Shown: positions 1 to 52,026 of the stretch, in pieces
Numbering within the stretch: position 1 is the first letter of the stretch
Layout of the letters: each line of letters opens with the position of its first letter
Assembly (NCBI GenBank): GCA_964636385.1
Contig: CAZWSC010000078.1
Span: 42,874-106,873, forward strand
DNA length: 64,000 bases
Direction: 5' to 3'
From: an uncultured bacterium
GTDB taxonomy: Bacteria; Eisenbacteria; RBG-16-71-46; CAIMUX01
Notes under the pieces: model-generated
Told to the model about the DNA's origin: nothing
The model's input: the letters and a program-made list of their open reading frames with translations, nothing else
Database searches by the model: none
Program-made: the position numbers and the translations under genes

Positions 1-17
1 GGTTTAACGCAAGGGGT

Positions 18-1016
18 GTGACAGCACCCGGCTTCTCACCGGGCCAGTACAGGCAGATTCTGCTCGAAGGGCCATTGCGCAGTGTCAACTGGATCATCCG
101 CAATCACGGACGGGCCGAGGACGCCTGGAGGGTCCCGCCCGATGCAGGCCCCCTTTTCCCGGCATCAATCGCCGATCAGGAGATGCAGGAAAGCGCGTTG
201 AGCCCGGTGCGGTCAAGGCACTTCATCAACTCCGACTTCCGCCCGGTGGGCTATGTACACACTGTCGCGTTCTGGAGCCACTTCACGGCAGCAGGCCGGA
301 CGGCCGCGTTCAGATGGATACTCAGGGTCGAGCCCTGGTGGATGGTCCCGGTGCTGGTGATCCTGCTTCTCGGGGCCGTGATCCTCAGGCGTCCGGCAGC
401 CGTGCGTTCGGGAGCAGGGATCGGGAGGTATCCGCTTCTGGCCGCGGTCTTCACAACCGGTCTCTCCACGATGACGCTTCAGATAGCGCTCCTGTTCGCC
501 TTCCAGGCTGTATACGGCTTTGTGTACGAGATGATCGGGGCGATCGTCGGAGGCTTCATGGCGGGTCTGGCGGCTGGCACCCTGGCGACCCTGCGCTTCG
601 TGCGCCTGAAGTCGGACACGCGGATTCTAATGCTTGTTCAACTCGCGATCGCACTCTGCGCCGGGTTGATTGCACTGGCCCTGCCCCTGTCGGGCGGCAT
701 AGCGTCACCGTCTCTTCAGCTGGCGCTGTTCCTGGGTGTCACCTTCATTGCGGGCTTCCTGAACGGTGTTGACTTCCCGCTTGCCGCGGCCTGTTTCCAT
801 GCGCTCGATGGAAAGGCCGAGCGTGCGACAGGGACCGTGTACGGGGTCGAGCTCTTTGGCGCGTGCTGCGGCGCCCTGCTCGCCGGGGTCATGGTCGCGC
901 CGGTTCTGGGGGTTGGCGCGTGCTGCTGGCTTGCCGCCATTGGGAATGGTGCGGCGTTTCTGGTACTGTTGATCTCCGGAGGCGCGCATGGAGCACCCAA
1001 AGGACAGGCTGCATGA
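18..1016 (+). CDS. Polytopic membrane protein, probably 5'-truncated by the window edge (the frame is open upstream of the GTG at 18)
   Basis: No in-frame stop between position 1 and 18. Residues ~110-330 are hydrophobic and look like multiple TM helices. No recognisable catalytic motif. Confidence 0.4.
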   Translation: MTAPGFSPGQYRQILLEGPLRSVNWIIRNHGRAEDAWRVPPDAGPLFPASIADQEMQESALSPVRSRHFINSDFRPVGYVHTVAFWSHFTAAGRTAAFRWILRVEPWWMVPVLVILLLGAVILRRPAAVRSGAGIGRYPLLAAVFTTGLSTMTLQIALLFAFQAVYGFVYEMIGAIVGGFMAGLAAGTLATLRFVRLKSDTRILMLVQLAIALCAGLIALALPLSGGIASPSLQLALFLGVTFIAGFLNGVDFPLAAACFHALDGKAERATGTVYGVELFGACCGALLAGVMVAPVLGVGACCWLAAIGNGAAFLVLLISGGAHGAPKGQAA

Positions 1017-2178
1017 AGATGACGCCGGAAGTGCGTCCGGCCGGGAGGATCGGGCCCGGAGGGAATTCCTGAAGTCAGGGCTGGCCGGCCTGGGCGCGCT
1101 GTGCCTGAGCGCTGCACCAAGTCCCCCGCACAAGACTGCCGCGCAGTCCACGAAGCGCGGGTTTGTGGGCCGCCGGGAGTCGCCCTGGTTCCGCCCGCTG
1201 GAACGCGATCACGTCGAGTGCACTCTCTGCCCGAGAGGCTGCCGTATTGCCCCGGGCAGGCGCGGTCACTGCAGGGTGCGTGAGAACCGGGGTGGAACCG
1301 GGGAGACCCTGGTCTACGGCACACCCAGTCTCGTTCAACTCGACCCGGTGGAGCGGAAGCCGTTCTTCCATGTCCAGCCCGGAACCAGGGCGCTGTCCGT
1401 CTCGACTTCGGGTTGCCCGCTCGAATGCGCATTCTGCGAGGTCTGGGACCTGGCACTCGTCTCGCCGGAGGATGTCTACGCGTATGACCTGCCTCCGGAG
1501 AGGGTCGTCGAGCACGCCATCGAGGCGGGCGCCAGGTCCGTAAGCTATGCGTTCGGGGAACCGGTCGCCTTCTTCGAGTACGCATACGACACGGCCGTCC
1601 TCGCCAGGCGCGCCGGCCTGCTGAACCTGGTTCACACTAGCGCCTACATGAACCCCGGGCCGCTCGGGCAAATGGCGGATGCGATCGACGCGGTGAACGT
1701 GGATCTCAAGGGGTTCGATCCCCGGTTCTACCGGGAGCACTGCGGGGCGGAGCTCGAGCCTGTGCTCCACAATCTGCGGCTGCTCAGAAAGGCCGGCGTG
1801 CATATCGAGATCACGAACCTGCTGATCCCGTCGCTAAACGACGACATCCAGGTTCTGCGCAGCATGATCCGGTGGATCCGCGACGAGCTCGGGCCGCACA
1901 CTCCCCTGCACTTCGCCCGTTTCTACCCGCTGTACAAGCTTGCAAATCTGCCTCCCACTCCCGTCTCCACGCTGGACCGGGCGCGCGATGCCGCACTCGA
2001 AGAGGGGATGGAGTTCGTCTATGTCGCGCGTGTGACCGGACACGAGGGGGAGAAGACCTACTGCCCGTCCTGCGGGCAGACCGTGATCGACCGCCTTGGC
2101 TTCGTCGTGGAGGAAGTGCGCCTGAACGATGGATGCTGCGCGTACTGCGGCAGGGAGATAGCCGGCCTCTGGGGATGA
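988..2178 (+). CDS. Radical SAM enzyme, AmmeMemoRadiSam (AmrS) / PFL-activase-like, with an N-terminal twin-arginine (Tat) signal
   Basis: Tat motif RREFLKSGLAGLGALCLSAAP. AmrS-type N-terminal Cys motif CTLCPRGCRIAPGRRGHCRVR. Radical SAM CX3CX2C in GCPLECAFCEVW. GGAGG sits 5 nt before the ATG. Confidence 0.8.
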   Translation: MEHPKDRLHEDDAGSASGREDRARREFLKSGLAGLGALCLSAAPSPPHKTAAQSTKRGFVGRRESPWFRPLERDHVECTLCPRGCRIAPGRRGHCRVRENRGGTGETLVYGTPSLVQLDPVERKPFFHVQPGTRALSVSTSGCPLECAFCEVWDLALVSPEDVYAYDLPPERVVEHAIEAGARSVSYAFGEPVAFFEYAYDTAVLARRAGLLNLVHTSAYMNPGPLGQMADAIDAVNVDLKGFDPRFYREHCGAELEPVLHNLRLLRKAGVHIEITNLLIPSLNDDIQVLRSMIRWIRDELGPHTPLHFARFYPLYKLANLPPTPVSTLDRARDAALEEGMEFVYVARVTGHEGEKTYCPSCGQTVIDRLGFVVEEVRLNDGCCAYCGREIAGLWG

Positions 2179-2207
2179 CGCGCGCTATGTGAATGGACGG
2201 GGATTTG

Positions 2208-3260
2208 TCAGCCGCGGCGGCGGAAGATGCCGTACTGCGACAGGGAGCGCTGATCCAGGTTGGTGAGTCCGGCGTCGATCGCCCAGTTCATGGCCTCCAC
2301 GAACTCCCTCGGAGTTATGGCGCGTGCAATCGCCTCGTGCTCGAAGGCGCGGTGCTCCACCCGGTACTGCGACATTATGTTCACGTACGTGGACGCGGGC
2401 AGGTTCTCCGCAACCCACTCGACGAATTGCCGCGTTCCGGCCACGTGGTTGGGCATCACGAGGTGGCGGATCATGAGACCGCGCTCGGCGATGCCCTGGG
2501 CGTCCGTGGCCAGCACACCCACCTGGCGGTGCATTTCCAGGACTGCCGCCTGTGCCGCCCCAGGGTAGTCCTCGGCGCTTCCGAGATACCTGCGGGCATT
2601 GGCGCCATCCATCATCTTGAGGTCCGGCAGGTATATGTCCACGATGCCGTCGAGAAGGCGGAGGATCTCCACGCGCTCATACCCGCCCGTGTTGTAGCAG
2701 ATCGGGAGGCGCAAGCCCTGCTGCATGGCCATCCTCGTTGCGCGGAGGATGTGAGGCATTACATGAGTGGGAGTCACGACGTTGATGTTCAGGCATCCGA
2801 TCCTCTGCAGGGAGAGCATCATCCCGGCGAGCTCCTGGTCGTCGATCTGCCTTCCCCTGCCCTCGTGGGCGATCGGCCAGTTCTGGCAGAAGACGCATCG
2901 GAGGTTGCAGTTGGATAAGAAGATCGTGCCCGATCCGCCTCCTCCCACCAGCGGGAGCTCCTCGCCGAAATGGGGCTGGGCCGAGTTCACAACCACACGC
3001 TGAGGGGCCCTGCAGATGCCGACCTCGCCGCGCAGCCTGTTCACGCCGCAGCGGCGCGGGCAGAGGTCGCATTGCTCGAGGTGGGTGAAGGCTTCCTCCA
3101 CGCGTGAGGCGAAGAGGCCCTGTTCCTCAAGGTCGAGATACGCCGGGTGTTTGTGGGTGTGGGGCGCCGACCGGGATTCCGGAAGGCCGGAGCCGTTGAG
3201 CAGCAGTGAGCCCCCCAGGAGCGCCGTGCTCTTCATGAACAGACGTCGTGACAGATTCAT
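2208..3260 (-). CDS. Second radical SAM enzyme, a paralog of 988-2178 (AmrS/PflA-like), also with a Tat signal
   Basis: Tat motif SRRLFMKSTALLGGSLLL. CDLCPRRCGVNRLRGEVGICR. CX3CX2C in NCNLRCVFCQNW. I chose the ATG at 3260 (MNLSRR) with GGAAGGA upstream. The ORF track's GTG at 3287 is the alternative. Confidence 0.8.
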   Translation of the reverse strand: MNLSRRLFMKSTALLGGSLLLNGSGLPESRSAPHTHKHPAYLDLEEQGLFASRVEEAFTHLEQCDLCPRRCGVNRLRGEVGICRAPQRVVVNSAQPHFGEELPLVGGGGSGTIFLSNCNLRCVFCQNWPIAHEGRGRQIDDQELAGMMLSLQRIGCLNINVVTPTHVMPHILRATRMAMQQGLRLPICYNTGGYERVEILRLLDGIVDIYLPDLKMMDGANARRYLGSAEDYPGAAQAAVLEMHRQVGVLATDAQGIAERGLMIRHLVMPNHVAGTRQFVEWVAENLPASTYVNIMSQYRVEHRAFEHEAIARAITPREFVEAMNWAIDAGLTNLDQRSLSQYGIFRRRG

Positions 3261-3302
3261 GGCATGCGATTCCTTCCACGGCCCCACACACCGGGCAGTG
3301 TA

Positions 3303-3899
3303 CTACATCCCCGGCGACAGCCCGAGCTCTTCCGGGATCGACTGCATCGCATCCGCCACAAGCATGACGTGTTCGTCGAAACTGACTCCCAGTTCCTCCA
3401 TGCCCTGCGCCACTTCATCCCGGTTTACGCTGCGGGCAAATGCCCTGTCCTTCAGCTTCTTGCGCACAGAGCCCGGCTTCAGCCCCGCCAGCGTCTGTCC
3501 CGGGCGTACCAGGGCTACGGCCATGAGGAATCCGCACAGCTCGTCGACTGCGAACAGCGTCTTCTCGACAAGCCGGTTGCGGGGGACGCCCGTGTACGAG
3601 GCGTGTGAAAGGATCGCCCTGCGGAAGTCCTCGGGGTAGCCGCGTTCGGCAAGGATCTTCCCGCCCATGGTGGGGTGTTCAGGCGCCTGAGGGTGAATTT
3701 CGTAGTCGAAGTCGTGCAGCAGCCCGACGAGCCCCCAGTAGTGCTCGTCCACCTCGGGGTCGCCCGGGTTGTCGGCAGCATACCTGCGGGCGTACGCCCG
3801 CATGGCGGCCTCGACTGCATAGGCATGCCGCCTGAGGCTCTCTGAACTTGTGAACTCGTGCAGAAGCGCCAGGGCTTCGCTCCGGTCGGGTAACGGCAT
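3303..3899 (-). CDS. HD/HDIG-domain metal-dependent phosphohydrolase
   Basis: LHDFDY and H...HD motif spacing typical of the HD superfamily. Start is MPLPDRSE, with GAGGAGG 5 nt upstream. Confidence 0.7.
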   Translation of the reverse strand: MPLPDRSEALALLHEFTSSESLRRHAYAVEAAMRAYARRYAADNPGDPEVDEHYWGLVGLLHDFDYEIHPQAPEHPTMGGKILAERGYPEDFRRAILSHASYTGVPRNRLVEKTLFAVDELCGFLMAVALVRPGQTLAGLKPGSVRKKLKDRAFARSVNRDEVAQGMEELGVSFDEHVMLVADAMQSIPEELGLSPGM

Positions 3900-4010
3900 T
3901 GGAACCTCCTCGTTCCGGACCAACACTCTGAATACTGCCCGGTACGGAGCCTGCACCGCAAGGGCGTGAAGCGGGAACAGGCCGGAGCGAAGGGGAGATG
4001 CAGTCTACGC

Positions 4011-4606: not shown

Positions 4607-5920
4607 ATGGGGAACATCCTCGGGATCCGCAGGGAGGACAAGAACCAGTGGGAACGGCGTGTCCCCCTGATCCCTGCCGATCTGGATATCCTCCAGAGAT
4701 ATAGCGGGTTGCAGTTCCTGGTGCAGAGCTCCCCCATCAGGGTATTCACGGATGGGGACTATCGCGGGAAGGGCCTGGAGGTCGTCGAGGATCTGTCCGC
4801 AGCTTCCATCGTATTGGCTGTCAAGGAGATACCGATAGGGCTGCTGGCCCCGGGCCGCGTCTATGTCTACTTCAGCCACGTCATCAAGGGCCAGAAGTAC
4901 AACATGCCGATGCTGCGGCATCTATTGCAGACAGGCTCCACCCTCATCGATTACGAGCGGATTACCGACGACAACCAGCGCCGCCTCATCTTCTTCAGCC
5001 TGCAGGCCGGCCAGGCCGGGATGATCGAGACACTCTGGGCTGTCGGACAGAGGCTCAGGTCCCGGGGGATGCAGACCCCCCTCTCGGCAGTGCGGCATGC
5101 CTACGAGTACGACGGTCTGTCGACGGCAAAGGAACACCTCGCCGAGATCGGCAGGGAGATCGAGGCGGAGGGCATGGGTGCAGGGCCGCGACCCCTGGTG
5201 ATCGGCATCGCCGGATACGGTAATGTGGCCGCGGGCTGCAGGGAGATTCTGGACTGCCTTCCCGTGCCCGAGGTGGCGGTGGCAGACCTCCCGGGAGCAG
5301 CGGCGGGTGGCCCGGGCGCCCCCCCGATGATCAGGGTCACATTCCGCGAAGAGCACATGGCCGAGCCGCTCGCACCAGGCGCCAGTTTCGAGCTGCAGGA
5401 TTACTACCGGCATCCGGAGAAGTACCGGGGGAGCTTCGAGACACACCTCCCGCATCTGGATGTCCTGATGAGCACGATCTACTGGGATGAGCGGTATCCG
5501 CGCCTGATTACGCGGGAGTGGACGAAGAGACACTACGGACAGGGTGCGGAGGCGCGACTGCAGGTGATCGGGGACATCAGCTGCGACATCGAGGGCGGAG
5601 TGGAACTGACGCTGAAGACTACGATGCCGGATGAGCCATGCTATGTATACGATCCCCGCAAGGACTCCGTGCGCACGGGTGTGGAGGGCACCGGCATTGT
5701 GATCATGGCGGTGGACAACCTGCCATGCGAGCTGCCGAGGGAGGCGTCCACCCACTTCAGCGGGGTTCTGCGCGACATGGTGGCCGATCTCGCGGCTGCC
5801 GACTGGGCGGCCGATTTCGACGCACTCGAACTGCCGGGGCACCTGAAGCGGGCTGTCATCGTGCACAGGGGGCAGCTGACGCCGGATTACGCCTACTTGA
5901 GCAGACATCTGGAGGGTTGA
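4607..5920 (+). CDS. Lysine-ketoglutarate reductase (saccharopine dehydrogenase, L-lysine-forming), AlaDH/PNT-fold
   Basis: N-terminus GIRREDKNQWERRVPLIP matches the LKR domain of eukaryotic AASS (RREDxNxWERRAPL). GGGAGG RBS upstream. Confidence 0.8.
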   Translation: MGNILGIRREDKNQWERRVPLIPADLDILQRYSGLQFLVQSSPIRVFTDGDYRGKGLEVVEDLSAASIVLAVKEIPIGLLAPGRVYVYFSHVIKGQKYNMPMLRHLLQTGSTLIDYERITDDNQRRLIFFSLQAGQAGMIETLWAVGQRLRSRGMQTPLSAVRHAYEYDGLSTAKEHLAEIGREIEAEGMGAGPRPLVIGIAGYGNVAAGCREILDCLPVPEVAVADLPGAAAGGPGAPPMIRVTFREEHMAEPLAPGASFELQDYYRHPEKYRGSFETHLPHLDVLMSTIYWDERYPRLITREWTKRHYGQGAEARLQVIGDISCDIEGGVELTLKTTMPDEPCYVYDPRKDSVRTGVEGTGIVIMAVDNLPCELPREASTHFSGVLRDMVADLAAADWAADFDALELPGHLKRAVIVHRGQLTPDYAYLSRHLEG

Positions 5921-5997: not shown

Positions 5998-7323
5998 ATG
6001 AAGAAGGTTCTGATTCTCGGGGCTGGACTGGTCGCACGTCCGCTGGTTCGCTATCTGCTGGACAAGGGTTACCACCTCACCCTGGCCACGCGCACGGTGT
6101 CCAAGGCCGAGAAGATGCTGGAGGGCCACCCGAACGGAGTTGCCTATCCCCTGAATCTTCAGGACGAGACGAAGCTGGAGGAGTACATCCGCGGCTGCGA
6201 TCTGGCCATCAGCCTTGTTCCCCCGGCGCTTCATCCGGTGGTGGCGCGCATCTGCATCCGGAACAGGAAGCACATGGTCACGACCAGCTACGTATCTGAT
6301 GAGATGCAGAAGCTGGATGGCCCGGCCCGGGAGGCCGGTGTCACGGTCGTCAACGAGATCGGTGTCGACCCGGGGATCGACCACATGTCGGCCATGCGGA
6401 TCATCGATGCGGTAAAGGCCAGGGGCGGGACGATTGAGTCGTTCAAGTCCTACTGCGGAGGGCTGCCGGCTCCGCAGCACAATGACAATCCGTTCGGGTA
6501 CAAGTTCTCGTGGGCGCCCCGCGGCGTGCTTCTGGCCAGCCGGAACGGCGCGCAGTACATACAGGACGGACGAAGGGTTGCGGTTCAGCCGGAGCGGCTC
6601 TTCCGTGACATGCACGTTCTGCAGGTCGAAGGCTTCGGCGACTTCGAGGCCTATCCGAACCGCGACTCCATCTCCTACGTCGATGTGTACGGTCTGAAGG
6701 GGATCCAGACCATCTTCCGTGGAACGCTGCGGAACATGGGCTGGTGCGACACGCTGTACAACTTCCGCAAACTCGGCTTCCTCGAACTCGAGGAGATGGA
6801 CGTCAAGGGGATGACCTATGCGGACCTCACCGCCAGGATCCTTGGCGCCTCTGCAGGTGGGAATCTGCGGGAAGCTGCGGCCCGGAAGGCCGGCATTCCT
6901 GTCGACGCGCTTCCCTGCTGGAATCTCGACTGGCTGGGGATGTTCTCGGACCGGAAGCTCTCCGTGGACAGGATCAGCCCCCTCGATGCGATGGGCGAGC
7001 TGATGTTCGAGAAGCTGGCGTACAAACCGGGCGAGCTGGATCTCATCGTCCTCTACCACGACTTCCGCGCTGCCTATCCGGATGGCAGGAAGGAGCGGAT
7101 CGTCTCGAAGATGATCGACTTTGGAATCGAGGGGGGCGACTCCTCGATGGCCCGGACTGTATCCCTGCCTGCGGCCATTGCGACGCACATGATACTGAAG
7201 GGCGAGATAACCGGGCACGGCGTGCTGCGTCCCGTAATGGGCAATGTGTACAACCCGGTCCTGGATGAGCTGGCGAGGATGAACATCACCTGCGAGGAGC
7301 ACACGGAGGAGTTCCGGCCGTAA
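5998..7323 (+). CDS. Saccharopine dehydrogenase (L-glutamate-forming), SDH domain
   Basis: N-terminal Rossmann VLILGAGLVARPLVRYL. Sacchrp_dh-like C-terminal region. GGGAGG sits 5 nt before the ATG. Directly downstream of the LKR gene. Confidence 0.8.
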   Translation: MKKVLILGAGLVARPLVRYLLDKGYHLTLATRTVSKAEKMLEGHPNGVAYPLNLQDETKLEEYIRGCDLAISLVPPALHPVVARICIRNRKHMVTTSYVSDEMQKLDGPAREAGVTVVNEIGVDPGIDHMSAMRIIDAVKARGGTIESFKSYCGGLPAPQHNDNPFGYKFSWAPRGVLLASRNGAQYIQDGRRVAVQPERLFRDMHVLQVEGFGDFEAYPNRDSISYVDVYGLKGIQTIFRGTLRNMGWCDTLYNFRKLGFLELEEMDVKGMTYADLTARILGASAGGNLREAAARKAGIPVDALPCWNLDWLGMFSDRKLSVDRISPLDAMGELMFEKLAYKPGELDLIVLYHDFRAAYPDGRKERIVSKMIDFGIEGGDSSMARTVSLPAAIATHMILKGEITGHGVLRPVMGNVYNPVLDELARMNITCEEHTEEFRP

Positions 7324-7461: not shown

Positions 7462-8604
7462 ATGGCTCAGGAGCGCTTCTACGCCACCATAGGAGTCGGC
7501 GTCGAGCAGATCGTCAGCCGTGAGCTGGAGGCGCTTGGGATCGGGGTGGCGCGAATCGAGCCCGGCCGCGTGCGTTTCGAGGGCGGACTGGAGGACCTGT
7601 ACCGCTCTGTCATACACCTCCGATCGGCTTCCAGGGTGATCCGAGAGCTCGAGTTCCGTGAGATCGGCGCAGAGACCGACATCTACGACACTGTCCGGGA
7701 GATCGACTGGTCGCCCTGGTTGAACCCGGACATGACCTTCAAGGTCACATTCAACGTCCACTCGTCGCTTCTCCAGAGCACGCGGTTCGGGATGTACAGG
7801 ATCAAGGATGCGATCTGCGACCAGTTCGTGGAACGCACGGGGCGAAGGCCGTCCGTTGACGTGGAGTCGGCGGATCTCTGCGTGAACTGCTACCTTGAGA
7901 ACCGGCGCTTCTCCGTGGGACTGGACGGTGCGGGAGCGCCCCTTCACATGCGTGGCTACCGTGTCGAACTCCACGAGAGCAGCCTCAGGGAGCACCTCGC
8001 AGCCGCGATGGTACTGCAGTCCGGCTGGGATCCGGCCGGCCCGCTGCACGATCCCTTCTGCGGATCAGGAACCATCCTCATAGAAGCCGCAATGATCGCC
8101 ACGCGGACGCCTCCGACGATAAGGCGCAGGCGCTTCGGCTGCATGTCATGGCCCGACTTCGATCGGGCGAGGTTCCGCGAACTCCGCTCCGAGGCCGCGG
8201 CGGCGATTCTTCCGGCAGAAGGCCTGCGGATCACCGGCGCAGACCGTTCCGCGAAGTGGGTTGATGCAGCCGCTGCGAACGCAAGAGCAGCCGGGTTTGG
8301 CGATGTCATACGCCTGACGGTCCGGGATGTCGGCGAGATGCGCCTCGAGCCCGGATCGTGGGTTGTGACGAACCCTCCGTATGGCAGGCGAATCGGCGAC
8401 GAGGCGATGCATACCCCGGCATGGAACGCATTCCGCGAGCGCCTGCTGGAGAGCCCTGGCGTGCACGCCGCCGTTCTGGCCGCCGAGGAGGGGTTCGAGA
8501 AGGCTTTCCGCCTGAAGCCGTTCAAGCGGAACCGGATGAACAACGGGCCGATTCAGTGCACCCTCGCCCAGTACAGGATCCGCGAGCGGGAGCAGGGCGT
8601 GTAG
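7462..8604 (+). CDS. THUMP-domain class I SAM-dependent RNA methyltransferase (RlmL/Trm14-like)
   Basis: THUMP-like N-terminal region and methyltransferase motifs (DPFCGSGTILIEAA; VTNPPYGRR = N/DPPY motif IV). AGGGAGG RBS before MAQERF. Confidence 0.75.
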   Translation: MAQERFYATIGVGVEQIVSRELEALGIGVARIEPGRVRFEGGLEDLYRSVIHLRSASRVIRELEFREIGAETDIYDTVREIDWSPWLNPDMTFKVTFNVHSSLLQSTRFGMYRIKDAICDQFVERTGRRPSVDVESADLCVNCYLENRRFSVGLDGAGAPLHMRGYRVELHESSLREHLAAAMVLQSGWDPAGPLHDPFCGSGTILIEAAMIATRTPPTIRRRRFGCMSWPDFDRARFRELRSEAAAAILPAEGLRITGADRSAKWVDAAAANARAAGFGDVIRLTVRDVGEMRLEPGSWVVTNPPYGRRIGDEAMHTPAWNAFRERLLESPGVHAAVLAAEEGFEKAFRLKPFKRNRMNNGPIQCTLAQYRIREREQGV

Positions 8605-8678
8605 TCCCGTCAGGCGGAACATGTGGCGCTGCCCGCGCAGGATGGAACACGGCGGTTGTCGGAGAGAACGACGGCGAC

Positions 8679-9746
8679 TCAGGCTGGCTTCGCCTCCCGG
8701 TCCTCCTCCTGCTCGATCATGAAGCGAAGCGCTGCGAACACCAGCAGGTTCAGCCCGAGTCCCAGCAGCCCAAGCCACTCGATCTGGTAGAAGACGAAGA
8801 CCTGGGTCAGAAGAAGGGACACGAGGACCGACTGCTGGAAGCGTCTCAGCCCGAGCAGCCGGTTCCCGAAGATCGACAGCGCGCCAAGGGCGATGAACAC
8901 CCAGGACAGGATGCCCGAGCCGAACTGCAGCCACTGCACGGCTGTATAAGAAGCCGTGTCCGGCGGCAGCGTGCTGACCAGCGGCACCGTGAGCCACCGC
9001 TCGCCGCCCACCGGCAGCAGGCGCACAAGGACCGCGAGCCTCCCGAGGTCGAGCAGGAACCGGAGCATGAAGAAGCCGACGATGCCCCGCACGAACCAGC
9101 GACCCTCCGCCAGCCTCCTGTATGACGACACCGCAGCCTGCAGAATCCTGGTGATCAGCCCTGCGCGTGGTTCCGGGGCAATCTCTGCCTGCATGAGGAT
9201 CTCCCGCAGGCTCCTTGTGATATGCCCCTCCTGGTCCGCACCTTCGAGGTGCCGAAGTGCACGCGCCTGCTCGTGGCCGTCCAGATCCCCGCGGATGACC
9301 TCGGTGACCTCCTGCAGCGCGTTAGCGAGGTGCTCCTCGCCGCTTGCCGCCGGCTGCCTGCGGTGTATCGACCGGGCGGCCAGGTAGATGAGCACGAGGG
9401 ACGCGTAGATCAGCGCCACGGCCGGCTGGTAGAAGTAGTCGTTGTCGTGGGTGACGAACTTGCCTATCTCGTCGATGAACGTTCCGAAGCCGAGGCCTCC
9501 CAGAAACGCCCCCCACTGCTTCGGGGTCCTTCCGATGAAGGAGAGCAGGATCACGATGCCGCCAAGCATCAGCAGCCCCCCCCAGAACATGTGGGCGATA
9601 TGCAGGGAATCGCCCCCCAGCTTTGGATACCCCGCCACGGCCAGGAAGAATCGGATCGACAGGATGGCAGCCACTGCGGCCACGAGCATCAGATCGAGGC
9701 GTCTGCCCGCCTCGAAGTCGCGCAGCCAGGGAGCGTGGGAGGTCAT
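8679..9746 (-). CDS. Hypothetical polytopic membrane protein
   Basis: Several hydrophobic segments with a central soluble region. No known motif. Start is MTSHAPW, with GGAAGG upstream. Confidence 0.5.
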   Translation of the reverse strand: MTSHAPWLRDFEAGRRLDLMLVAAVAAILSIRFFLAVAGYPKLGGDSLHIAHMFWGGLLMLGGIVILLSFIGRTPKQWGAFLGGLGFGTFIDEIGKFVTHDNDYFYQPAVALIYASLVLIYLAARSIHRRQPAASGEEHLANALQEVTEVIRGDLDGHEQARALRHLEGADQEGHITRSLREILMQAEIAPEPRAGLITRILQAAVSSYRRLAEGRWFVRGIVGFFMLRFLLDLGRLAVLVRLLPVGGERWLTVPLVSTLPPDTASYTAVQWLQFGSGILSWVFIALGALSIFGNRLLGLRRFQQSVLVSLLLTQVFVFYQIEWLGLLGLGLNLLVFAALRFMIEQEEDREAKPA

Positions 9747-9845
9747 GATTGCCGTACCTTCCTGCTCCTCAGTGGGAGCCTGCCTTCCCGGCACAACGGC
9801 CGCCTGCTGACGAGGCCACGCATCCGAATGGCGGCCAGGTGTCGC

Positions 9846-10496
9846 CTACCTCACCCGGAACCTCTCCACGCCCAGTTCGACCGCGAGCTTCCTCGAGGCT
9901 TCGATCTCCTCCTGTGTAAGCGCAAACCCCACAACCGACGCCTGGACGTCGCGGAACACATGCGGAGCTCTTCGCAGAAAGTCGAGCATCGCTTCCCAGA
10001 ACATCACGGGCGGCGGGGGTTCCGCGGCCGCCACTTCCGGAACGGGCGACATCCGCAACGCCTGTGGGAACGGCCGGCTCACCTCCATGTAGCGCCCCGG
10101 GTCCGGCGCGTTCAGCGAAACCGACACGGCATCCACCGCGGCGGAGAGCTCCGGCAGGATGTCACGGCCGTGTATCAGGCAGGCATGTCCGTTCGTGTTC
10201 AGGCGGATCCGGGCACCTTCCGACCGCAGTTGCGCGGCAGCTTCGCTGATCAGGTCGAGACGGAAGGTCGGCTCCCCGAACCCGCACCAGATGAACTCCC
10301 CGAAGGCCGTGACTCCTCCGATTGCGCTGATGGCCTCGAGGAGGTCCGCCAGCGTCGGCTCCGGCCCTCCCCACAGCACCGCATCGCCGAGGCCCGGCCC
10401 TCGCTGCCTGATGCAGAAGGAACAATGGTTGGTGCAGCGGTTGGTGGGATTGAGGTAGAGACGGCCCGGATCGCCATAGCTGTACACGTAGTCCAT
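9846..10496 (-). CDS. Small radical SAM protein (TatD-associated radical SAM, TIGR04038-like)
   Basis: MDYVYSYGDPGRLYLNPTNRCTNHCSFCIR has a CX3CX2C with the aromatic residue typical of this small (~215 aa) family. AGGGA RBS. Confidence 0.65.
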   Translation of the reverse strand: MDYVYSYGDPGRLYLNPTNRCTNHCSFCIRQRGPGLGDAVLWGGPEPTLADLLEAISAIGGVTAFGEFIWCGFGEPTFRLDLISEAAAQLRSEGARIRLNTNGHACLIHGRDILPELSAAVDAVSVSLNAPDPGRYMEVSRPFPQALRMSPVPEVAAAEPPPPVMFWEAMLDFLRRAPHVFRDVQASVVGFALTQEEIEASRKLAVELGVERFRVR

Positions 10497-10695
10497 CGCG
10501 GAATCCCTTTCTTGAAGATCCGGCAAAGGCCGGAACCATGCAGGCAGCTTATGCGGATGCCCGTTGGCAATCAACCGCCCCGGATCGGGCATGCGCGTCA
10601 TCCCGGCATGCGGGTGGGCAGCTTGCCCGGACCACGGCTCCGGTCTATCCTCCAGGGGAGTCTGCACGCAGCACAAAGTCAACCGCGGAGGCGTC

Positions 10696-13119
10696 ATGAG
10701 CACAGCAGCACCTTCGATCAGGCCTTTCCCGTTCTCACCGCGACGCGCCCGCTTCATCGACGTAACCGCCGCCGAGCCAGGCGGGATGCCGCGTGGGGGC
10801 AGGGCTCCTGCGGAGTCACTGACCCTGTTCGACCTGGTCTACCGTACCCTCTGCGCAATCCTATACAACTACGTGCCCACATCCGGTCATCCGGGAGGGA
10901 GCATATCCTCGGGCCGGATCGTGGCGTCGTTGCTCTTCGATGCGATGGACTACGACTTCTCCCAGCCCGACAGGCCCGGGGCCGACCTGATCTCGTACGC
11001 AGCGGGGCACAAGGCGATGGGCCTGTATGCGATGTGGGCCCTGCGCAACGAGGTTGTCCGCGTGGGCGCGCCCGATCTGCTCCCCGCGGAGAAGATGCAG
11101 CTGAGGCTCGAGGATCTGCTCGGCTTCCGTCGGAATCCGGTCACATCCACGCCGCTCTTCACGAAACTCCACTCCCGTCCACTCGACGGACACCCCGCGC
11201 CCCTGGTCCCCTTCGTGAGGCTGGCTACGGGCGCCTCAGGTGTGGGTGTGCCGGCATCCCTCGGGCTGGCCCTGGCGGCGATGGATCTGTATGGCCTCGG
11301 ATCGGCTCGCGATCCCGGCGGACGCGGTTCCGTCCCGAAGGTGCACATCATCGAGGGAGAGGGCGGGATGACAGCAGGCCGGGTGTCCGAGGCGATGGCG
11401 ATGGCCGCCACCGCCTGCCTGGGCAACGCGGTCATGCATCTCGACTGGAACCAGGCCTCGATCGACTCCGACCGCGTGTGCGCGTACGCCGGCCGGCCAG
11501 GCGATTACGTGCAGTGGAACCCGGCGGAGTTCGCGTATCTCCACGACTGGAATGTGATCCGCGTACAGGACGGCAGCGACTTCTCCCAGGTTCTGGTTGC
11601 ACAGAGGCTGGCAGCGGAGGTGATGAACGATCAGCCCACCTGCATCGTGTACAGAACGGTGAAGGGATGGCGCTACGGGATCGAGGGGTGCAGATCTCAC
11701 GGCGCCGGCCACGCGTTCTGCTCCGAAGAGTTCTACGCAAGTCTCAGACCCTTCGAAGATGAATTCGGCGTCACATGCCCGCGATTTTACGGAGGGGAGA
11801 GTCCGGAACGCCTGGAGCAGGCCTTCTGGGACACCCTCATGGTTGTGAGGCAGGCTGTGGAGTCGCGCAGGGACTGGGCGACAGGCCTGGCTGCCAGGCT
11901 GGAGGAGTCGCGCCGCCGCCTGGAATCGCACAACAGGATGATCACCGCCGACATGCCGGACTCCTCGCTTCTGTACAACGACTCGATCAGGCCCGACGAG
12001 ACGCCGGATGAACTAAGGCTGGAGCCGGGCTCAGCGACCACCCTGCGCGCGGTGCTGGGAGACGCGCTGAACCACCTCAACAGGCACTGCCGTGGCGCCA
12101 TCCTGGCAACTGCGGCGGACCTGTGCGGATCGACCAGCATCGCCAATGTCAACAAGGGATACCCGAGCGGCTTCTACAACGCAGTCGACAACCCGGGATC
12201 GCGCCTCATTGCATGTGGCGGTATCTGCGAGGACGCGATGGGGGCGCTCATGACGGGTGTGTCCGCTTACGGGCGACACGCGGGCGTGTCATCTTCATAC
12301 GGCGCGTTCATCGCCCCGCTGCAGCATGTGGCGGCCAGGCTGCACGCCATCGGGCAACAGAATCGCAGGGAGCTGACCGGGGAGGCGTACAACCCCTTTA
12401 TCATGGTCTGTGCCCACGCAGGGCTCAAGACCGGGGAAGACGGACCCACACATGCCGATCCGCAGCCCCTGCAGCTACTGCAGGAGAACTTCCCGTCCGG
12501 GGCGGCGATCACCCTCACTCCGTGGGAACCACGGGAGGTGTGGCCTCTGCTGGTCGCTGCGCTTAAGATGCGGCCTGCTGTCATAGCACCGTTCGTGACG
12601 AGGCCGGAGGAGAGGGTGCCGGATCGCAGGGCACTCGGAATCCCTCCGGCCTCCGAGACTGTACAAGGCATCTGCGCATGGAGGCGGGCTGACGCCGGAA
12701 AGCGCCCATATCACGGGACGATTGTCCTGCAGGGAAGCGGCGTCGCGTATGAGTTCGCGGAGTGCGTCCTGCCCGAGATCGGCAGGCAAGGTCTCAACAT
12801 GAACGTCTTCTACATTTCCAGCACGGAGTTGTTCCTGATGCTGCCGCAGGAGAGGAGGGAAGAGATCTTCCCGGCCGCCCTGGCCGGCGAGGCGATGGGA
12901 ATCACCGACTTCACGCTGCCGACGCTCTTCCGCTGGGTCGCCTCGGAACAGGGGCGGGAGCGGAGCCTGCATCCCTTCAGATCAGGGCGGTACCCCGGCA
13001 GCGGCCCGGCCCACGCGGTCATGCGGGAAGCCGGACTGGATGGACGCAGTCAGCTGGATTCAGTGCTTGCCTATGCCGAGGCTTGTGAAAGGCGCGGAGG
13101 TCCTGACAATGATGCATGA
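10696..13119 (+). CDS. Transketolase-family thiamine-diphosphate enzyme (long form, ~807 aa)
   Basis: SGHPGGSISSGRIVASLLF and GHKAMGLYAMWAL (TPP-binding N-domain). EGEGGMTAGRVSEAMAMA (GDGxxxEG motif). GGAGG RBS before MSTAAPS. Confidence 0.7.
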   Translation: MSTAAPSIRPFPFSPRRARFIDVTAAEPGGMPRGGRAPAESLTLFDLVYRTLCAILYNYVPTSGHPGGSISSGRIVASLLFDAMDYDFSQPDRPGADLISYAAGHKAMGLYAMWALRNEVVRVGAPDLLPAEKMQLRLEDLLGFRRNPVTSTPLFTKLHSRPLDGHPAPLVPFVRLATGASGVGVPASLGLALAAMDLYGLGSARDPGGRGSVPKVHIIEGEGGMTAGRVSEAMAMAATACLGNAVMHLDWNQASIDSDRVCAYAGRPGDYVQWNPAEFAYLHDWNVIRVQDGSDFSQVLVAQRLAAEVMNDQPTCIVYRTVKGWRYGIEGCRSHGAGHAFCSEEFYASLRPFEDEFGVTCPRFYGGESPERLEQAFWDTLMVVRQAVESRRDWATGLAARLEESRRRLESHNRMITADMPDSSLLYNDSIRPDETPDELRLEPGSATTLRAVLGDALNHLNRHCRGAILATAADLCGSTSIANVNKGYPSGFYNAVDNPGSRLIACGGICEDAMGALMTGVSAYGRHAGVSSSYGAFIAPLQHVAARLHAIGQQNRRELTGEAYNPFIMVCAHAGLKTGEDGPTHADPQPLQLLQENFPSGAAITLTPWEPREVWPLLVAALKMRPAVIAPFVTRPEERVPDRRALGIPPASETVQGICAWRRADAGKRPYHGTIVLQGSGVAYEFAECVLPEIGRQGLNMNVFYISSTELFLMLPQERREEIFPAALAGEAMGITDFTLPTLFRWVASEQGRERSLHPFRSGRYPGSGPAHAVMREAGLDGRSQLDSVLAYAEACERRGGPDNDA

Positions 13120-50491: not shown

Positions 50492-51874
50492 TCAGAGCAG
50501 GCCGCCGGCGCGCAGGCCCTGTATCCACAGGGCGACAAGGAGGCACAGGAAGGCTATCCTTCTCGCCATCCCGACGCGGCCGAGGAGCGCGACTCCGGCG
50601 AGTCCCCGTCCGGCAAGCACGGCAATGAACGGCAGGCTCAGCAGGCGAGCGTCGCCCATGCGGCCAGTGACGACCCCGACGGCCATGATGCTCACGATCA
50701 GAAGCGCCAGTGCGCGCTCAATCCCTCCTGCTCCGCGCTGCAGCACCAGCCAGGAAAGCGCGAGGGTGAGGACCGTGCCGTAGAACAGGGCCTGGAACAG
50801 CCTGAACCAGTGCAACCTGTACGGGAACGGATCAGTTGAGCCAGAGTCGCTCATTGGTGAGAAGGCGAAGAATCGGGTAATGCGACTGGACCATACGGAC
50901 GCCAGTCTGCCGGGATGTGTGGCAGCGTATCCGAGGAAATCCTGGAACGCGATCCTGTTCTCTGTGAGGACCATGTTGTCAGGAGCCCTGGCTTCTGCTC
51001 CCGGCAGGGAGTACCTGGCGACCGGCATGTCCGGGACGTTGGCAGCCCGCAGCCTGAGGCCCCATGTGCTCTCCACAAAGACTGGGTGGCCGTGCAGCCT
51101 TGAGGAACGAACGGTCCAGGGGGCGATTACGCAGAAGGCGGCGATAAGCAGGAAGCCGCGGCGCATCCACAGGTCCAGGCAGTTGCCGATCCGGAATGGT
51201 GCGTGACGGCCGATGCGGTGGATCCCGATGTGGGGTTCATCTGCATAGTCGTGAATCCCTCTGACGGCGATCAGGACCAGGACTGGGAAGATGAGGCCAG
51301 TACGCCCGAGGATCGAGCACCCGAGCAGTGCGCCGGCCATAAGGCTCTCCCCGATCCCCGGGATTCCTGGACGGCGGAACCAGGCCAGTACACCAATCGA
51401 CAGCATCAGGCCCAGAATGAGCACCGGCGTAAGGTGCCGGGTTTCGGCCACGGCCTGCGGGAAGAAGGCGATGATGAGGCCGGCCAGAAGGGCGTCACGT
51501 CGCTGAAGCCCGGCGATCCGGGCCAGGGCAACAACCGGCACCACGAGCAGCGATCCGATCAGGGCCTGGGACAGGAGAACGGTGTGGGGGGTATAGCCAT
51601 AGATCCTGTAGAGGATCCCGAGGAAGTACGGGTAGAGCGGGGGAATGCTGGACGAAGGACCAAAGCCGAGTCCGGATGCGATACGCAGGGCATAGCTGTC
51701 AATGACCTGGCCATCTCCGGGGAACGGTGGTGAGTGTTGCAGCACGGCCCACAGACGTACGGCAAGGGCCAGGATCACTAGAAGGAGCACATGGATATCC
51801 CGGGGTGCGCTGTAACCTGCTCCAGACCCGGCAGTGCTGTCTCCATCTCCGACGCTGTTCAACTCATCCCGCAT
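50492..51874 (-). CDS. GT-C fold glycosyltransferase, ArnT/PMT (GT39/GT83)-like membrane protein
   Basis: ~11 TM helices with an N-terminal periplasmic loop, characteristic of ArnT/PMT-like enzymes. ATG at 51874. Confidence 0.55.
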   Translation of the reverse strand: MRDELNSVGDGDSTAGSGAGYSAPRDIHVLLLVILALAVRLWAVLQHSPPFPGDGQVIDSYALRIASGLGFGPSSSIPPLYPYFLGILYRIYGYTPHTVLLSQALIGSLLVVPVVALARIAGLQRRDALLAGLIIAFFPQAVAETRHLTPVLILGLMLSIGVLAWFRRPGIPGIGESLMAGALLGCSILGRTGLIFPVLVLIAVRGIHDYADEPHIGIHRIGRHAPFRIGNCLDLWMRRGFLLIAAFCVIAPWTVRSSRLHGHPVFVESTWGLRLRAANVPDMPVARYSLPGAEARAPDNMVLTENRIAFQDFLGYAATHPGRLASVWSSRITRFFAFSPMSDSGSTDPFPYRLHWFRLFQALFYGTVLTLALSWLVLQRGAGGIERALALLIVSIMAVGVVTGRMGDARLLSLPFIAVLAGRGLAGVALLGRVGMARRIAFLCLLVALWIQGLRAGGLL

Positions 51875-52026
51875 CACGGCCGATTCTACCGGCCCCCCGG
51901 ACCCGGCGAAAGCGGGTAAGCCAGGGGGCAGGCCGGTCGTCCGATTAGGTAGATCCGTCGGGGATGCAGAAGGGGCGGCGATAGGACCGCCGCCCCTCTT
52001 GTCCTGGCTGGATGAAGCGTCAGGGG

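Follow-up and report, generated by a model that had tools for sequence, protein, structure and literature searches.

A conserved three-gene module pairs two radical SAM proteins carrying Tat-type signals with a transporter fused to a spermidine-synthase-like domain

Introduction

Radical S-adenosylmethionine (SAM) enzymes make up one of the largest enzyme superfamilies, and their dependence on SAM, on a low-potential reductant and on shielding from O2 is the reason why they are regarded as strictly confined to the cytoplasm. Could enzymes of this type nevertheless work outside the cytoplasm? The question is raised by a locus in a 64,000-nucleotide (nt) stretch of DNA from an uncultured Eisenbacteria bacterium (contig CAZWSC010000078.1; hereafter, the window), in which two adjacent genes, here called A and B, encode radical SAM proteins that begin with sequences resembling twin-arginine translocation (Tat) signals. 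A first-pass annotation made from the letters alone had described the two as exported paralogs, possibly activases. Here we report that A and B belong to a three-gene module, the third gene of which, M, encodes a transporter fused to a spermidine-synthase-like domain. The recognition of M as a conserved partner is new; already known was a Tat label on some B homologs, which NCBI automatic annotation names 'twin-arginine translocation signal domain-containing protein'.

Families and catalytic motifs of A and B

Gene A (988..2178, forward strand; 396 amino acids (aa)) and gene B (2208..3260, reverse strand; 350 aa) are convergent within the window, and the listing of open reading frames (ORFs) places 30 nt between their stop codons (2178 versus 2208). 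The first-pass annotation had read a CxxCPxxC...C motif and a CX3CX2C motif in each, and both are indeed present in the two ORFs and invariant in their homologs. In A, the N-terminal four-Cys motif C78-x2-C81-P-x2-C85...C95 (1219..1272), an auxiliary metal or cluster site, is followed by the radical SAM cluster motif C143-x3-C147-x2-C150 (1414..1437), which lies in the PF04055 match, and by ribbon-like C-terminal Cys pairs (C359, C362 ... C384, C387; 2062..2148). All of these residues are invariant in an alignment of the 120 best homologs, which have the same length as A and cover its N terminus. B carries C64-x2-C67-P-x2-C71...C83 (3012..3071, reverse strand) and C118-x3-C122-x2-C125 (2886..2909, reverse strand), again invariant across 121 sequences, namely B and its 120 best homologs, equally of matching length and with the N terminus covered. 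Both proteins exceed the cut-off of the radical SAM model PF04055 (29.5 bits), A with 64.6 and B with 39.0 bits. The invariance of the catalytic Cys residues thus argues that A and B are both maintained as enzymes.

As a bona fide TIGR04337 protein (AmmeMemoRadiSam radical SAM enzyme family), A reaches 324.9 bits where the cut-off lies at 220; its match begins at residue 67, and 120 of 120 A homologs match the model as well. B, by contrast, scores 18.3 bits and reaches no NCBIfam model, so that the label 'AmmeMemoRadiSam-type', originally given to both proteins, fits A and fails for B. Alignment of A with B gives 27% identity (E = 5e-6), confined to the N-terminal 147 residues. Because A alone reaches TIGR04337 and B falls elsewhere, the two are members of different families of the pyruvate formate lyase (PFL)-activase-like branch; they are paralogs at the superfamily level only and not the close paralogs they had been taken for. 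A PDB sequence search returned the PFL activating enzyme (PFL-AE) as the only match of A (E = 1e-5), and nothing matched B.

An exhaustive search of 1.84 billion cluster representatives recovered 1,049 representatives of the B catalytic domain family at E ≤ 1e-30. The best 150 are mostly about 300 aa long and have the CxxCPxxC motif inside their first 40 residues, and therefore no N-terminal extension; a Tat-like N terminus occurs in only 3 of these 150, and 1 has a Sec-like N terminus. The representative P0361 has a Sec-like hydrophobic N terminus (MKSCFRWAALGLCPFLPGVLAAGL...) that is not of the twin-arginine kind, which would be odd for an Fe–S enzyme. The short (~300 aa) cytoplasmic proteins named 'putative pyruvate formate lyase activating enzyme' form what we take to be the COG1313/PflX-type group.

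Tat-type N termini

The signal region of A (988..1143; residues 1–52) comprises an n-region, the twin arginines R24-R25 (1057..1062), EFLK, an h-region spanning S30–A43 and a predicted signal-peptidase-I site, TAA↓Q53 (arrow, cleavage); it reads MEHPKDRLHEDDAGSASGREDRA-RR-EFLK-SGLAGLGALCLSAA-PSPPHKTAA↓QSTKRGF. That of B (3171..3260, reverse strand; residues 1–30) reads MNLS-RR-LFMK-STALLGGSLLL-NGSGLPESR, with R5R6 at 3248..3243 and STALLGGSLLL as the h-region. The Tat pattern (S/T-R-R-x-F-L-K, h-region, c-region) is present as ARREFLK, SGLAGLGALCLSAA and TAA↓Q in A, and as SRRLFMK and STALLGGSLLL in B. The start of A lies inside the 3′ end of M (29-nt overlap), with GGAGG (978..982) 5 nt 5′ of its ATG. 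The longest frame of B opens at GTG 3287, which had been called as its start; the supported start is ATG 3260, with GGAAGGA ahead of it at 3277..3271, and the NCBI/JGI gene call (P0511, on a 134,605-nt contig) is the identical 350-aa protein.

These features are conserved in both families. Homologs of A follow the consensus RRxFLKAGAxGxCALCLxG....AxAQ, with R25 at least 90% conserved across the 120, and in B the residues R5, R6 and F8 are each at least 90% conserved across the 121 sequences. An RR or KR motif occurs in 115 of 120 A homologs (87 RR, 28 KR) and 114 of 120 B homologs (112 RR, 2 KR). Downstream of the h-region, A-x-A-[QHG] is found in 64 of 120 A homologs and a lipobox in 9; in B, the h-region ends in Cys in 52 of 120 homologs, 19 of which have a classical lipobox. 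In the independently fetched DNA loci, the motif is correctly spaced from the Cys motif in 85 of 89 A ORFs and 51 of 55 B ORFs; the exceptions have RK or NR at the same position. Individual lineages carry recognizable processing sites, among them the canonical lipobox ILAAC in the B signal of Thioalkalivibrio paradoxus (MPVTRRTFLKRMAVAGGAGILAAC), the cleavage-type end of its A signal (...LARRQTLKAGVGGLCALCLARVGIGLAPAGA↓Q) and IVGC in the A signal of a Dehalococcoidales bacterium (NRRVFLKASAGIVGMLCLSSIVGC). Two details of the A family may be recorded here: KR is found in 28 of 120 A homologs against 2 of 120 in B, and RK is exemplified by the Desulfonatronovibrio A sequence ITRKEFI (noted in L026, L046 and L093); in addition, many A h-regions contain a conserved CxxC (GACALCL).

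The first-pass annotation had argued that the RR motifs are not a matter of chance. Our Tat-like rule asked for RR or KR, x-hydrophobic-hydrophobic and then a run of 12 or more uncharged residues with a mean hydropathy of at least 1.0. A and B pass it; of shuffled N termini, fewer than 1% do (40 of 4,800). Among the 176 ORFs of the window that are 150 aa or longer, 4 pass, and A and B are two of them. A survey for homologs that start downstream of the RR found that about 95% of the 120 per protein keep [RK]R-x-F-L at the same place, with a hydrophobic stretch after it, so that the earlier argument holds. The rule under-counted B (87 of 120), mostly owing to a Lys just ahead of the Cys or Gly that ends the h-region ('LLKAC', 'LLLKG'), and the looser motif counts given above were used instead. 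A PMT_2 ORF (dolichyl-phosphate-mannose-type glycosyltransferase; 50492..52135, reverse strand) also passes the rule from an internal Met, with an RR-hydrophobic stretch that is probably a transmembrane (TM) segment and no signal.

A neighbour-joining tree of catalytic cores unites the 90 Tat-type A sequences in a single clade, from which the 13 non-Tat sequences are separate. The non-Tat TIGR04337 relatives (L007–L023; 33–45% identical) begin 20–40 residues before the Cys motif and have neither RR nor h-region. In the AlphaFold2 (AF2) model of B, residues 16–35 have a predicted local distance difference test (pLDDT) score below 50, and the ordered part of the chain starts near residue 40. Because the TIGR04337 match of A starts at residue 67, residues 16–35 of B are modelled with such low confidence and the non-Tat relatives lack the extension, the N-terminal extension is an add-on outside the catalytic fold of both proteins. 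On the best reading of these sequences, A and B represent different radical SAM enzymes, and the subclade of each acquired a complete Tat signal.

M combines a transporter with a spermidine-synthase-like domain

The 'membrane protein' placed at 18..1016 by the first-pass annotation is the last third of the 808-aa gene M, which is present whole at locus L001 (2347..4773). The window holds its 3′ part (1..1016, forward strand), the last ~338 codons, which cover the end of the putative outward domain and TM8–TM14. M scores 53 bits against NF037959 (fused major facilitator superfamily (MFS)/spermidine synthase; cut-off 40) and reaches PF01564 with residues 289–411; its 120 best homologs are about 800–870 aa long and at least 46% identical. 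The AF2 model (pLDDT 91.4, predicted template modelling score 0.92) has seven TM helices, a beta/Rossmann domain at residues ~237–580 and seven further TM helices, and structure comparison recovers both the MFS and the SpeE folds in it. The best structural matches of the TM part are exporters of amines and cationic drugs. As modelled, M is a 12-TM MFS fold with two extra central helices that bear the SpeE-like domain. An hhalign test for an internal 6+6 repeat gave a collinear, though weak, match (E = 0.012).

MFS proteins have cytoplasmic termini and a cytoplasmic central loop. With an additional helix on either side of that loop, the M domain would therefore lie on the trans side. Charge distribution, read by the positive-inside rule, points strongly the same way: across 120 orthologs, the loops predicted to be cytoplasmic contain a mean of 22.6 Lys and Arg residues, compared with 2.4 on the opposite side, and inside exceeds outside in 120 of 120 orthologs. 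The SpeE-like domain of M is thus predicted to face outward.

Within this domain, G306–G308, G311, E328, D330 and D360 are invariant and D378, P380 and D381 nearly so, and the acidic motif D-x-P-D/E-P is retained. The GGGDGG loop, which is selective for decarboxylated SAM (dcSAM), is replaced by GGG(L/M)RG, in which the Asp is lost and the Arg is at least 90% conserved. Judged by the known aminopropyltransferases, this change suggests a domain that may accept SAM instead of dcSAM. We rejected M as a bona fide spermidine synthase on the basis of its scores against TIGR00417 (86.7 versus 249.6 bits) and PRK00811 (92.2 versus 260 bits) and of the altered GGGDGG loop.

The three genes are conserved as a module

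The order M>A>B< is found in L001–L005, L024–L027, L108 and L109, where M and A overlap or abut and the flanks are otherwise unrelated. Besides L001, these are four Spirochaetales metagenome-assembled genomes (MAGs) from soda-lake sediments (L002–L005), one contig each from ENA (L024) and JGI (L027), Desulfonatronovibrio hydrogenovorans (L026), a contig with A and B products that NCBI places in Planctomycetes (L025) and two complete genomes, that of T. paradoxus ARh 1 (L108; CP007029.1, around 2.696–2.701 Mb) and that of a Dehalococcoidales bacterium (L109). The module occurs in at least five phyla: Spirochaetota, Planctomycetota, Desulfobacterota, Chloroflexota and, through T. paradoxus, Gammaproteobacteria.

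A metagenome scan seeded with the A alignment added 80 loci; when these are pooled with the remaining Tat-type loci, 26 are flanked by 3 kb or more on either side. B is adjacent to A in 21 of these 26, as A>B<, B<A> or B>A>, and M is present in 14, lying upstream or in the orders A>B<M> and B>A>M>. A homologs at least 55% identical to the window A show the arrangement M>A>B< wherever the contig leaves room. When all ORFs from 90 loci were clustered, only A, B, M and shadow ORFs recurred, and no candidate for a precursor peptide emerged.

AMMECR1 and Memo partners had been reported missing, and tblastn of the 64-kb window likewise came back empty; Memo and Memo-AMMECR1 queries also found no match in the Tat-type loci searched, with a partner elsewhere in the genome possible. 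By comparison, a Memo gene (TIGR04336, 249 bits) lies directly downstream of A's non-Tat relatives in L009 and L014, and a Memo+AMMECR1 fusion occurs at L011. A role for A in an AmmeMemoRadiSam three-gene system was rejected, since AMMECR1 (TIGR04335) and Memo (TIGR04336) were not found in the window or the Tat-type loci searched. Searches with E. coli TatA and TatC found no match in the window or the fetched loci and are uninformative.

A proposed extracytoplasmic module

We propose that A, B and M form an extracytoplasmic SAM-dependent module, and we consider the whole chain, from Tat export through anchoring or release to action beside M, somewhat probable. A and B would fold and receive their Fe–S clusters in the cytoplasm; since cluster insertion is cytoplasmic, the folded holo-proteins would be exported via Tat and not Sec. 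In most lineages, signal peptidase I would free A by cutting at AxA↓Q, and B, and A in some lineages, would be lipid-anchored or signal-anchored. Both would act beside M at the outer face of the cytoplasmic membrane. Most plausibly, the transporter half of M would bring a SAM-type cosubstrate, an amine substrate or both to the trans side, where the M domain, A and B would modify an envelope or extracellular substrate. The three proteins are each predicted to expose their catalytic part outside, two by their signals and one by its topology. What softens the objection that SAM is cytoplasmic is the outward domain of M, in which a SAM/dcSAM-type site is conserved, and the fusion of this domain to a transporter. 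The genes and their families, the conserved signals, the linkage and the fold of M with its predicted topology are the ground for this proposal; from them, we infer export, SAM delivery by M, an electron source and a substrate.

A more far-reaching version would make this the first extracytoplasmic radical SAM system, in which M exports SAM or a derivative to its own domain and to Tat-exported A and B for envelope or extracellular radical chemistry in many anaerobic and soda-lake bacteria. We put this version forward tentatively, as possible rather than probable.

Several observations weigh against the proposal. The first-pass claim of Tat signals stands as regards the conserved motif, with the caveat that the curated Tat hidden Markov models (HMMs) score the window sequences below their cut-offs: the A N terminus reaches 14.4 bits against PF10518 (cut-off 22.7), and that of B reaches 12.7 bits against PF10518 and 14.4 bits against TIGR01409 (cut-off 16.7). 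Although sub-threshold, these HMMs were the only short-motif matches on the two N termini. About 20 of 121 B homologs reach approximately the TIGR01409 cut-off, a count that is insensitive, and TIGR01409 is not among the top 25 families for A homologs, where the whole-family count is equally insensitive. KR or RK replaces RR in about a quarter of the A family, which is unusually frequent for true Tat substrates. Many loci of the more distant A clade have no M within 3–4 kb, and the module encodes no conserved reductant. Our literature search found no precedent for SAM outside the cytoplasm, and the change from GGGDGG to GGG(L/M)RG makes the cosubstrate of M uncertain. Finally, one module host, T. 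paradoxus, is presumably an aerobe, and O2-labile clusters would therefore sit in an oxidizing periplasm.

Alternative explanations

Some of these observations would be accommodated if the Tat-like N termini were vestigial or re-purposed as a membrane tether or as a docking or proofreading handle, with A and B working at the inner membrane face near the loops of M and drawing on SAM and ferredoxin or flavodoxin. Both SAM and a low-potential donor are required for radical SAM chemistry, and NarG and NapF are examples of proteins that bear a twin-arginine remnant and are not exported. The sub-threshold HMM scores, the frequent KR and RK variants in A, the occurrence of the module in an organism that we assume to be aerobic and the fact that no exported radical SAM enzyme was found described in the literature searched would all fit. 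However, A and B carry a full n-h-c architecture with signal-peptidase-I or lipobox sites, which are meaningful on the trans side only; in this they are unlike known remnants. A hydrophobic N-terminal helix after positive charges would point the C-terminal domain outward, and the enzymatic domain of M, the only conserved partner, is likewise predicted outside. That two unrelated, linked families acquired the same kind of signal also argues for export. We therefore regard retention in the cytoplasm as unlikely.

In another scenario, A and B would be exported without catalytic turnover of SAM outside. They could act once with pre-bound SAM, as stoichiometric 'activases' of M or another exported protein, or serve as Fe–S redox or structural subunits, and M would move, for example, a polyamine. 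Tat carries proteins that have already folded around their cofactors, the nearest relatives by structure and by sequence are glycyl-radical activases, whose target is a partner protein, the TM part of M best resembles amine or drug exporters, and a conserved reductant is missing from the module, all of which are compatible with this scenario. Yet the module contains no partner resembling a glycyl-radical enzyme (GRE), and GRE-activase models score far below their cut-offs (TIGR02494, 50.9 versus 174 bits). The invariance of all cluster-binding and core residues in both families fits real enzymes, and the nucleotide-cosubstrate site kept in the outward domain of M argues that a SAM-like molecule is available outside. 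This scenario strikes us as improbable.

That the signals are an artefact of mis-called starts or of chance hydrophobic N termini in GC-rich DNA, with the real starts downstream of the RR, is barely credible and, judging from sequence conservation, excluded for practical purposes: an in-frame GTG (V59) does lie just before the conserved domain of A, one gene caller began B at M9 (342 aa) and high-GC DNA yields long spurious ORF extensions, but RR, h-region and cleavage-type sites are conserved in homologs 47–90% identical from several phyla, Shine–Dalgarno-like sequences precede the upstream ATGs, shuffled controls pass at under 1%, and NCBI/JGI call the long forms.

Comparison with known systems

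Returning to the extracytoplasmic module that we favour, we compared its members with known relatives. A shares the N-terminal CxxCxxxC...C, CX3CX2C and C-terminal Cys pairs with the AmmeMemoRadiSam enzyme (TIGR04337, 'AmrS'). Canonical members of that family (L007–L023) have no N-terminal signal, and several have Memo or Memo+AMMECR1 directly downstream, whereas A has a Tat signal and B and M as partners. The biochemical function of the TIGR04337 family was not found described in the literature searched. The short (~300 aa) PFL-activase-like proteins share the catalytic domain and CxxCPxxC motif of B and mostly lack the extension; the Tat-bearing B clade is a small, A-linked subset of this family, of which no characterized member was found in the literature searched.

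PFL activating enzyme and the glycyl-radical activases (PDB 3C8F; TIGR02493/TIGR02494) show 14% identity, and the module enzymes add an N-terminal four-Cys motif and an export signal. A glycyl-radical activase identity was rejected (TIGR02494 at best 50.9 versus 174 bits for A and 22 bits for B; no GRE-like gene in the module). Of the reading first offered for A and B, placement outside the membrane is the best interpretation of the sequences.

Known Tat-exported Fe–S enzymes include [NiFe]-hydrogenase small subunits, reductive dehalogenases and the high-potential iron–sulfur protein. A and B would share their logic: the cofactor is inserted in the cytoplasm, a twin-arginine signal directs the folded holo-protein outward, and the protein is then released or anchored in the membrane. 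These enzymes, however, need no cytoplasmic cosubstrate such as SAM, as A and B would. A radical SAM enzyme was not found among Tat substrates in the literature searched, nor were exported radical SAM enzymes or the M–A–B module found described. The radical SAM enzyme of anaerobic sulfatase maturation is cytoplasmic, and its matured product is exported. The same division of labour holds for the HXS antiphage system, the radical SAM enzyme of which is cytoplasmic and the matured product of which is exported (PMC13128918). Both systems serve a function outside by exporting a product, whereas in A and B the enzymes themselves carry the signal.

M resembles the membrane-bound polyamine aminopropyltransferase PRK03612 over residues 16–417 (140 bits, below the cut-off of 472). 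It differs from both NF037959 and PRK03612 in its ~810-aa, 14-TM form, in the position of the SpeE-like domain between two extra central helices, in the GGG(L/M)RG loop and in its linkage to two radical SAM genes with Tat signals. We found no functional study of fused MFS/spermidine synthases in the literature. Membership in a known anti-phage defence system was rejected after a PADLOC search, in which A and B were unmatched and M matched mad2 via its Rossmann part only.

Neighbouring genes

The first-pass annotation named a membrane protein and an HD phosphohydrolase as neighbours. Both are present; the former is the C-terminal third of the conserved partner M, and the latter is not conserved beside A and B, even in the closest relatives, and was rejected as a partner. 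The HD-domain gene (3303..3956, reverse strand) ends 43 nt upstream of the B start on the same strand, so that in this genome the two may share a transcript. Adjacent AlaDh_PNT-type and saccharopine dehydrogenase genes (4607..5920 and 5998..7323) are unlinked to the module in other genomes; the saccharopine-pathway genes and a THUMP/RlmL-like methyltransferase gene were rejected as partners, as they are not conserved beside the A/B pair. An 846-aa ORF at 9222..11762 (forward strand) has no Pfam match at E ≤ 0.001.

In T. paradoxus, the module (L108, 1547..7715) lies beside large glycosyltransferase genes (GT2 and a GT2–GT1 fusion) and a class I methyltransferase gene. These neighbours are compatible with an envelope-polysaccharide context and are not conserved elsewhere. 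A Syntrophobacterales MAG (L006; 6467..7375 and 7884..9047) encodes a Tat-type A homolog (RRTFLRNSAGALALLSLPALPAPARA↓QA) with no B or M within 8 kb. This gene lies about 500 nt downstream of one for a NapH-like polytopic polyferredoxin (four Fer4_5 repeats plus Fer4), a possible electron route across the membrane to an exported radical SAM enzyme.

Significance

If the prediction holds, the module would give three groups, the uncharacterized TIGR04337 and PFL-activase-like families and the fused MFS/spermidine synthases, a concrete, testable context, and cultured hosts exist in T. paradoxus ARh 1 and D. hydrogenovorans. Should export fail, the locus would still be an unusual case of cytoplasmic enzymes on which complete Tat-like signals have been re-used. 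If the proposal is true, SAM or a derivative would be delivered across the membrane, a periplasmic low-potential electron source would exist and an envelope or extracellular molecule would be made by radical chemistry. The module would then overturn the view of radical SAM enzymes as obligately cytoplasmic, and, if both export and SAM delivery are real, it would represent a categorically new mode of radical SAM biology.

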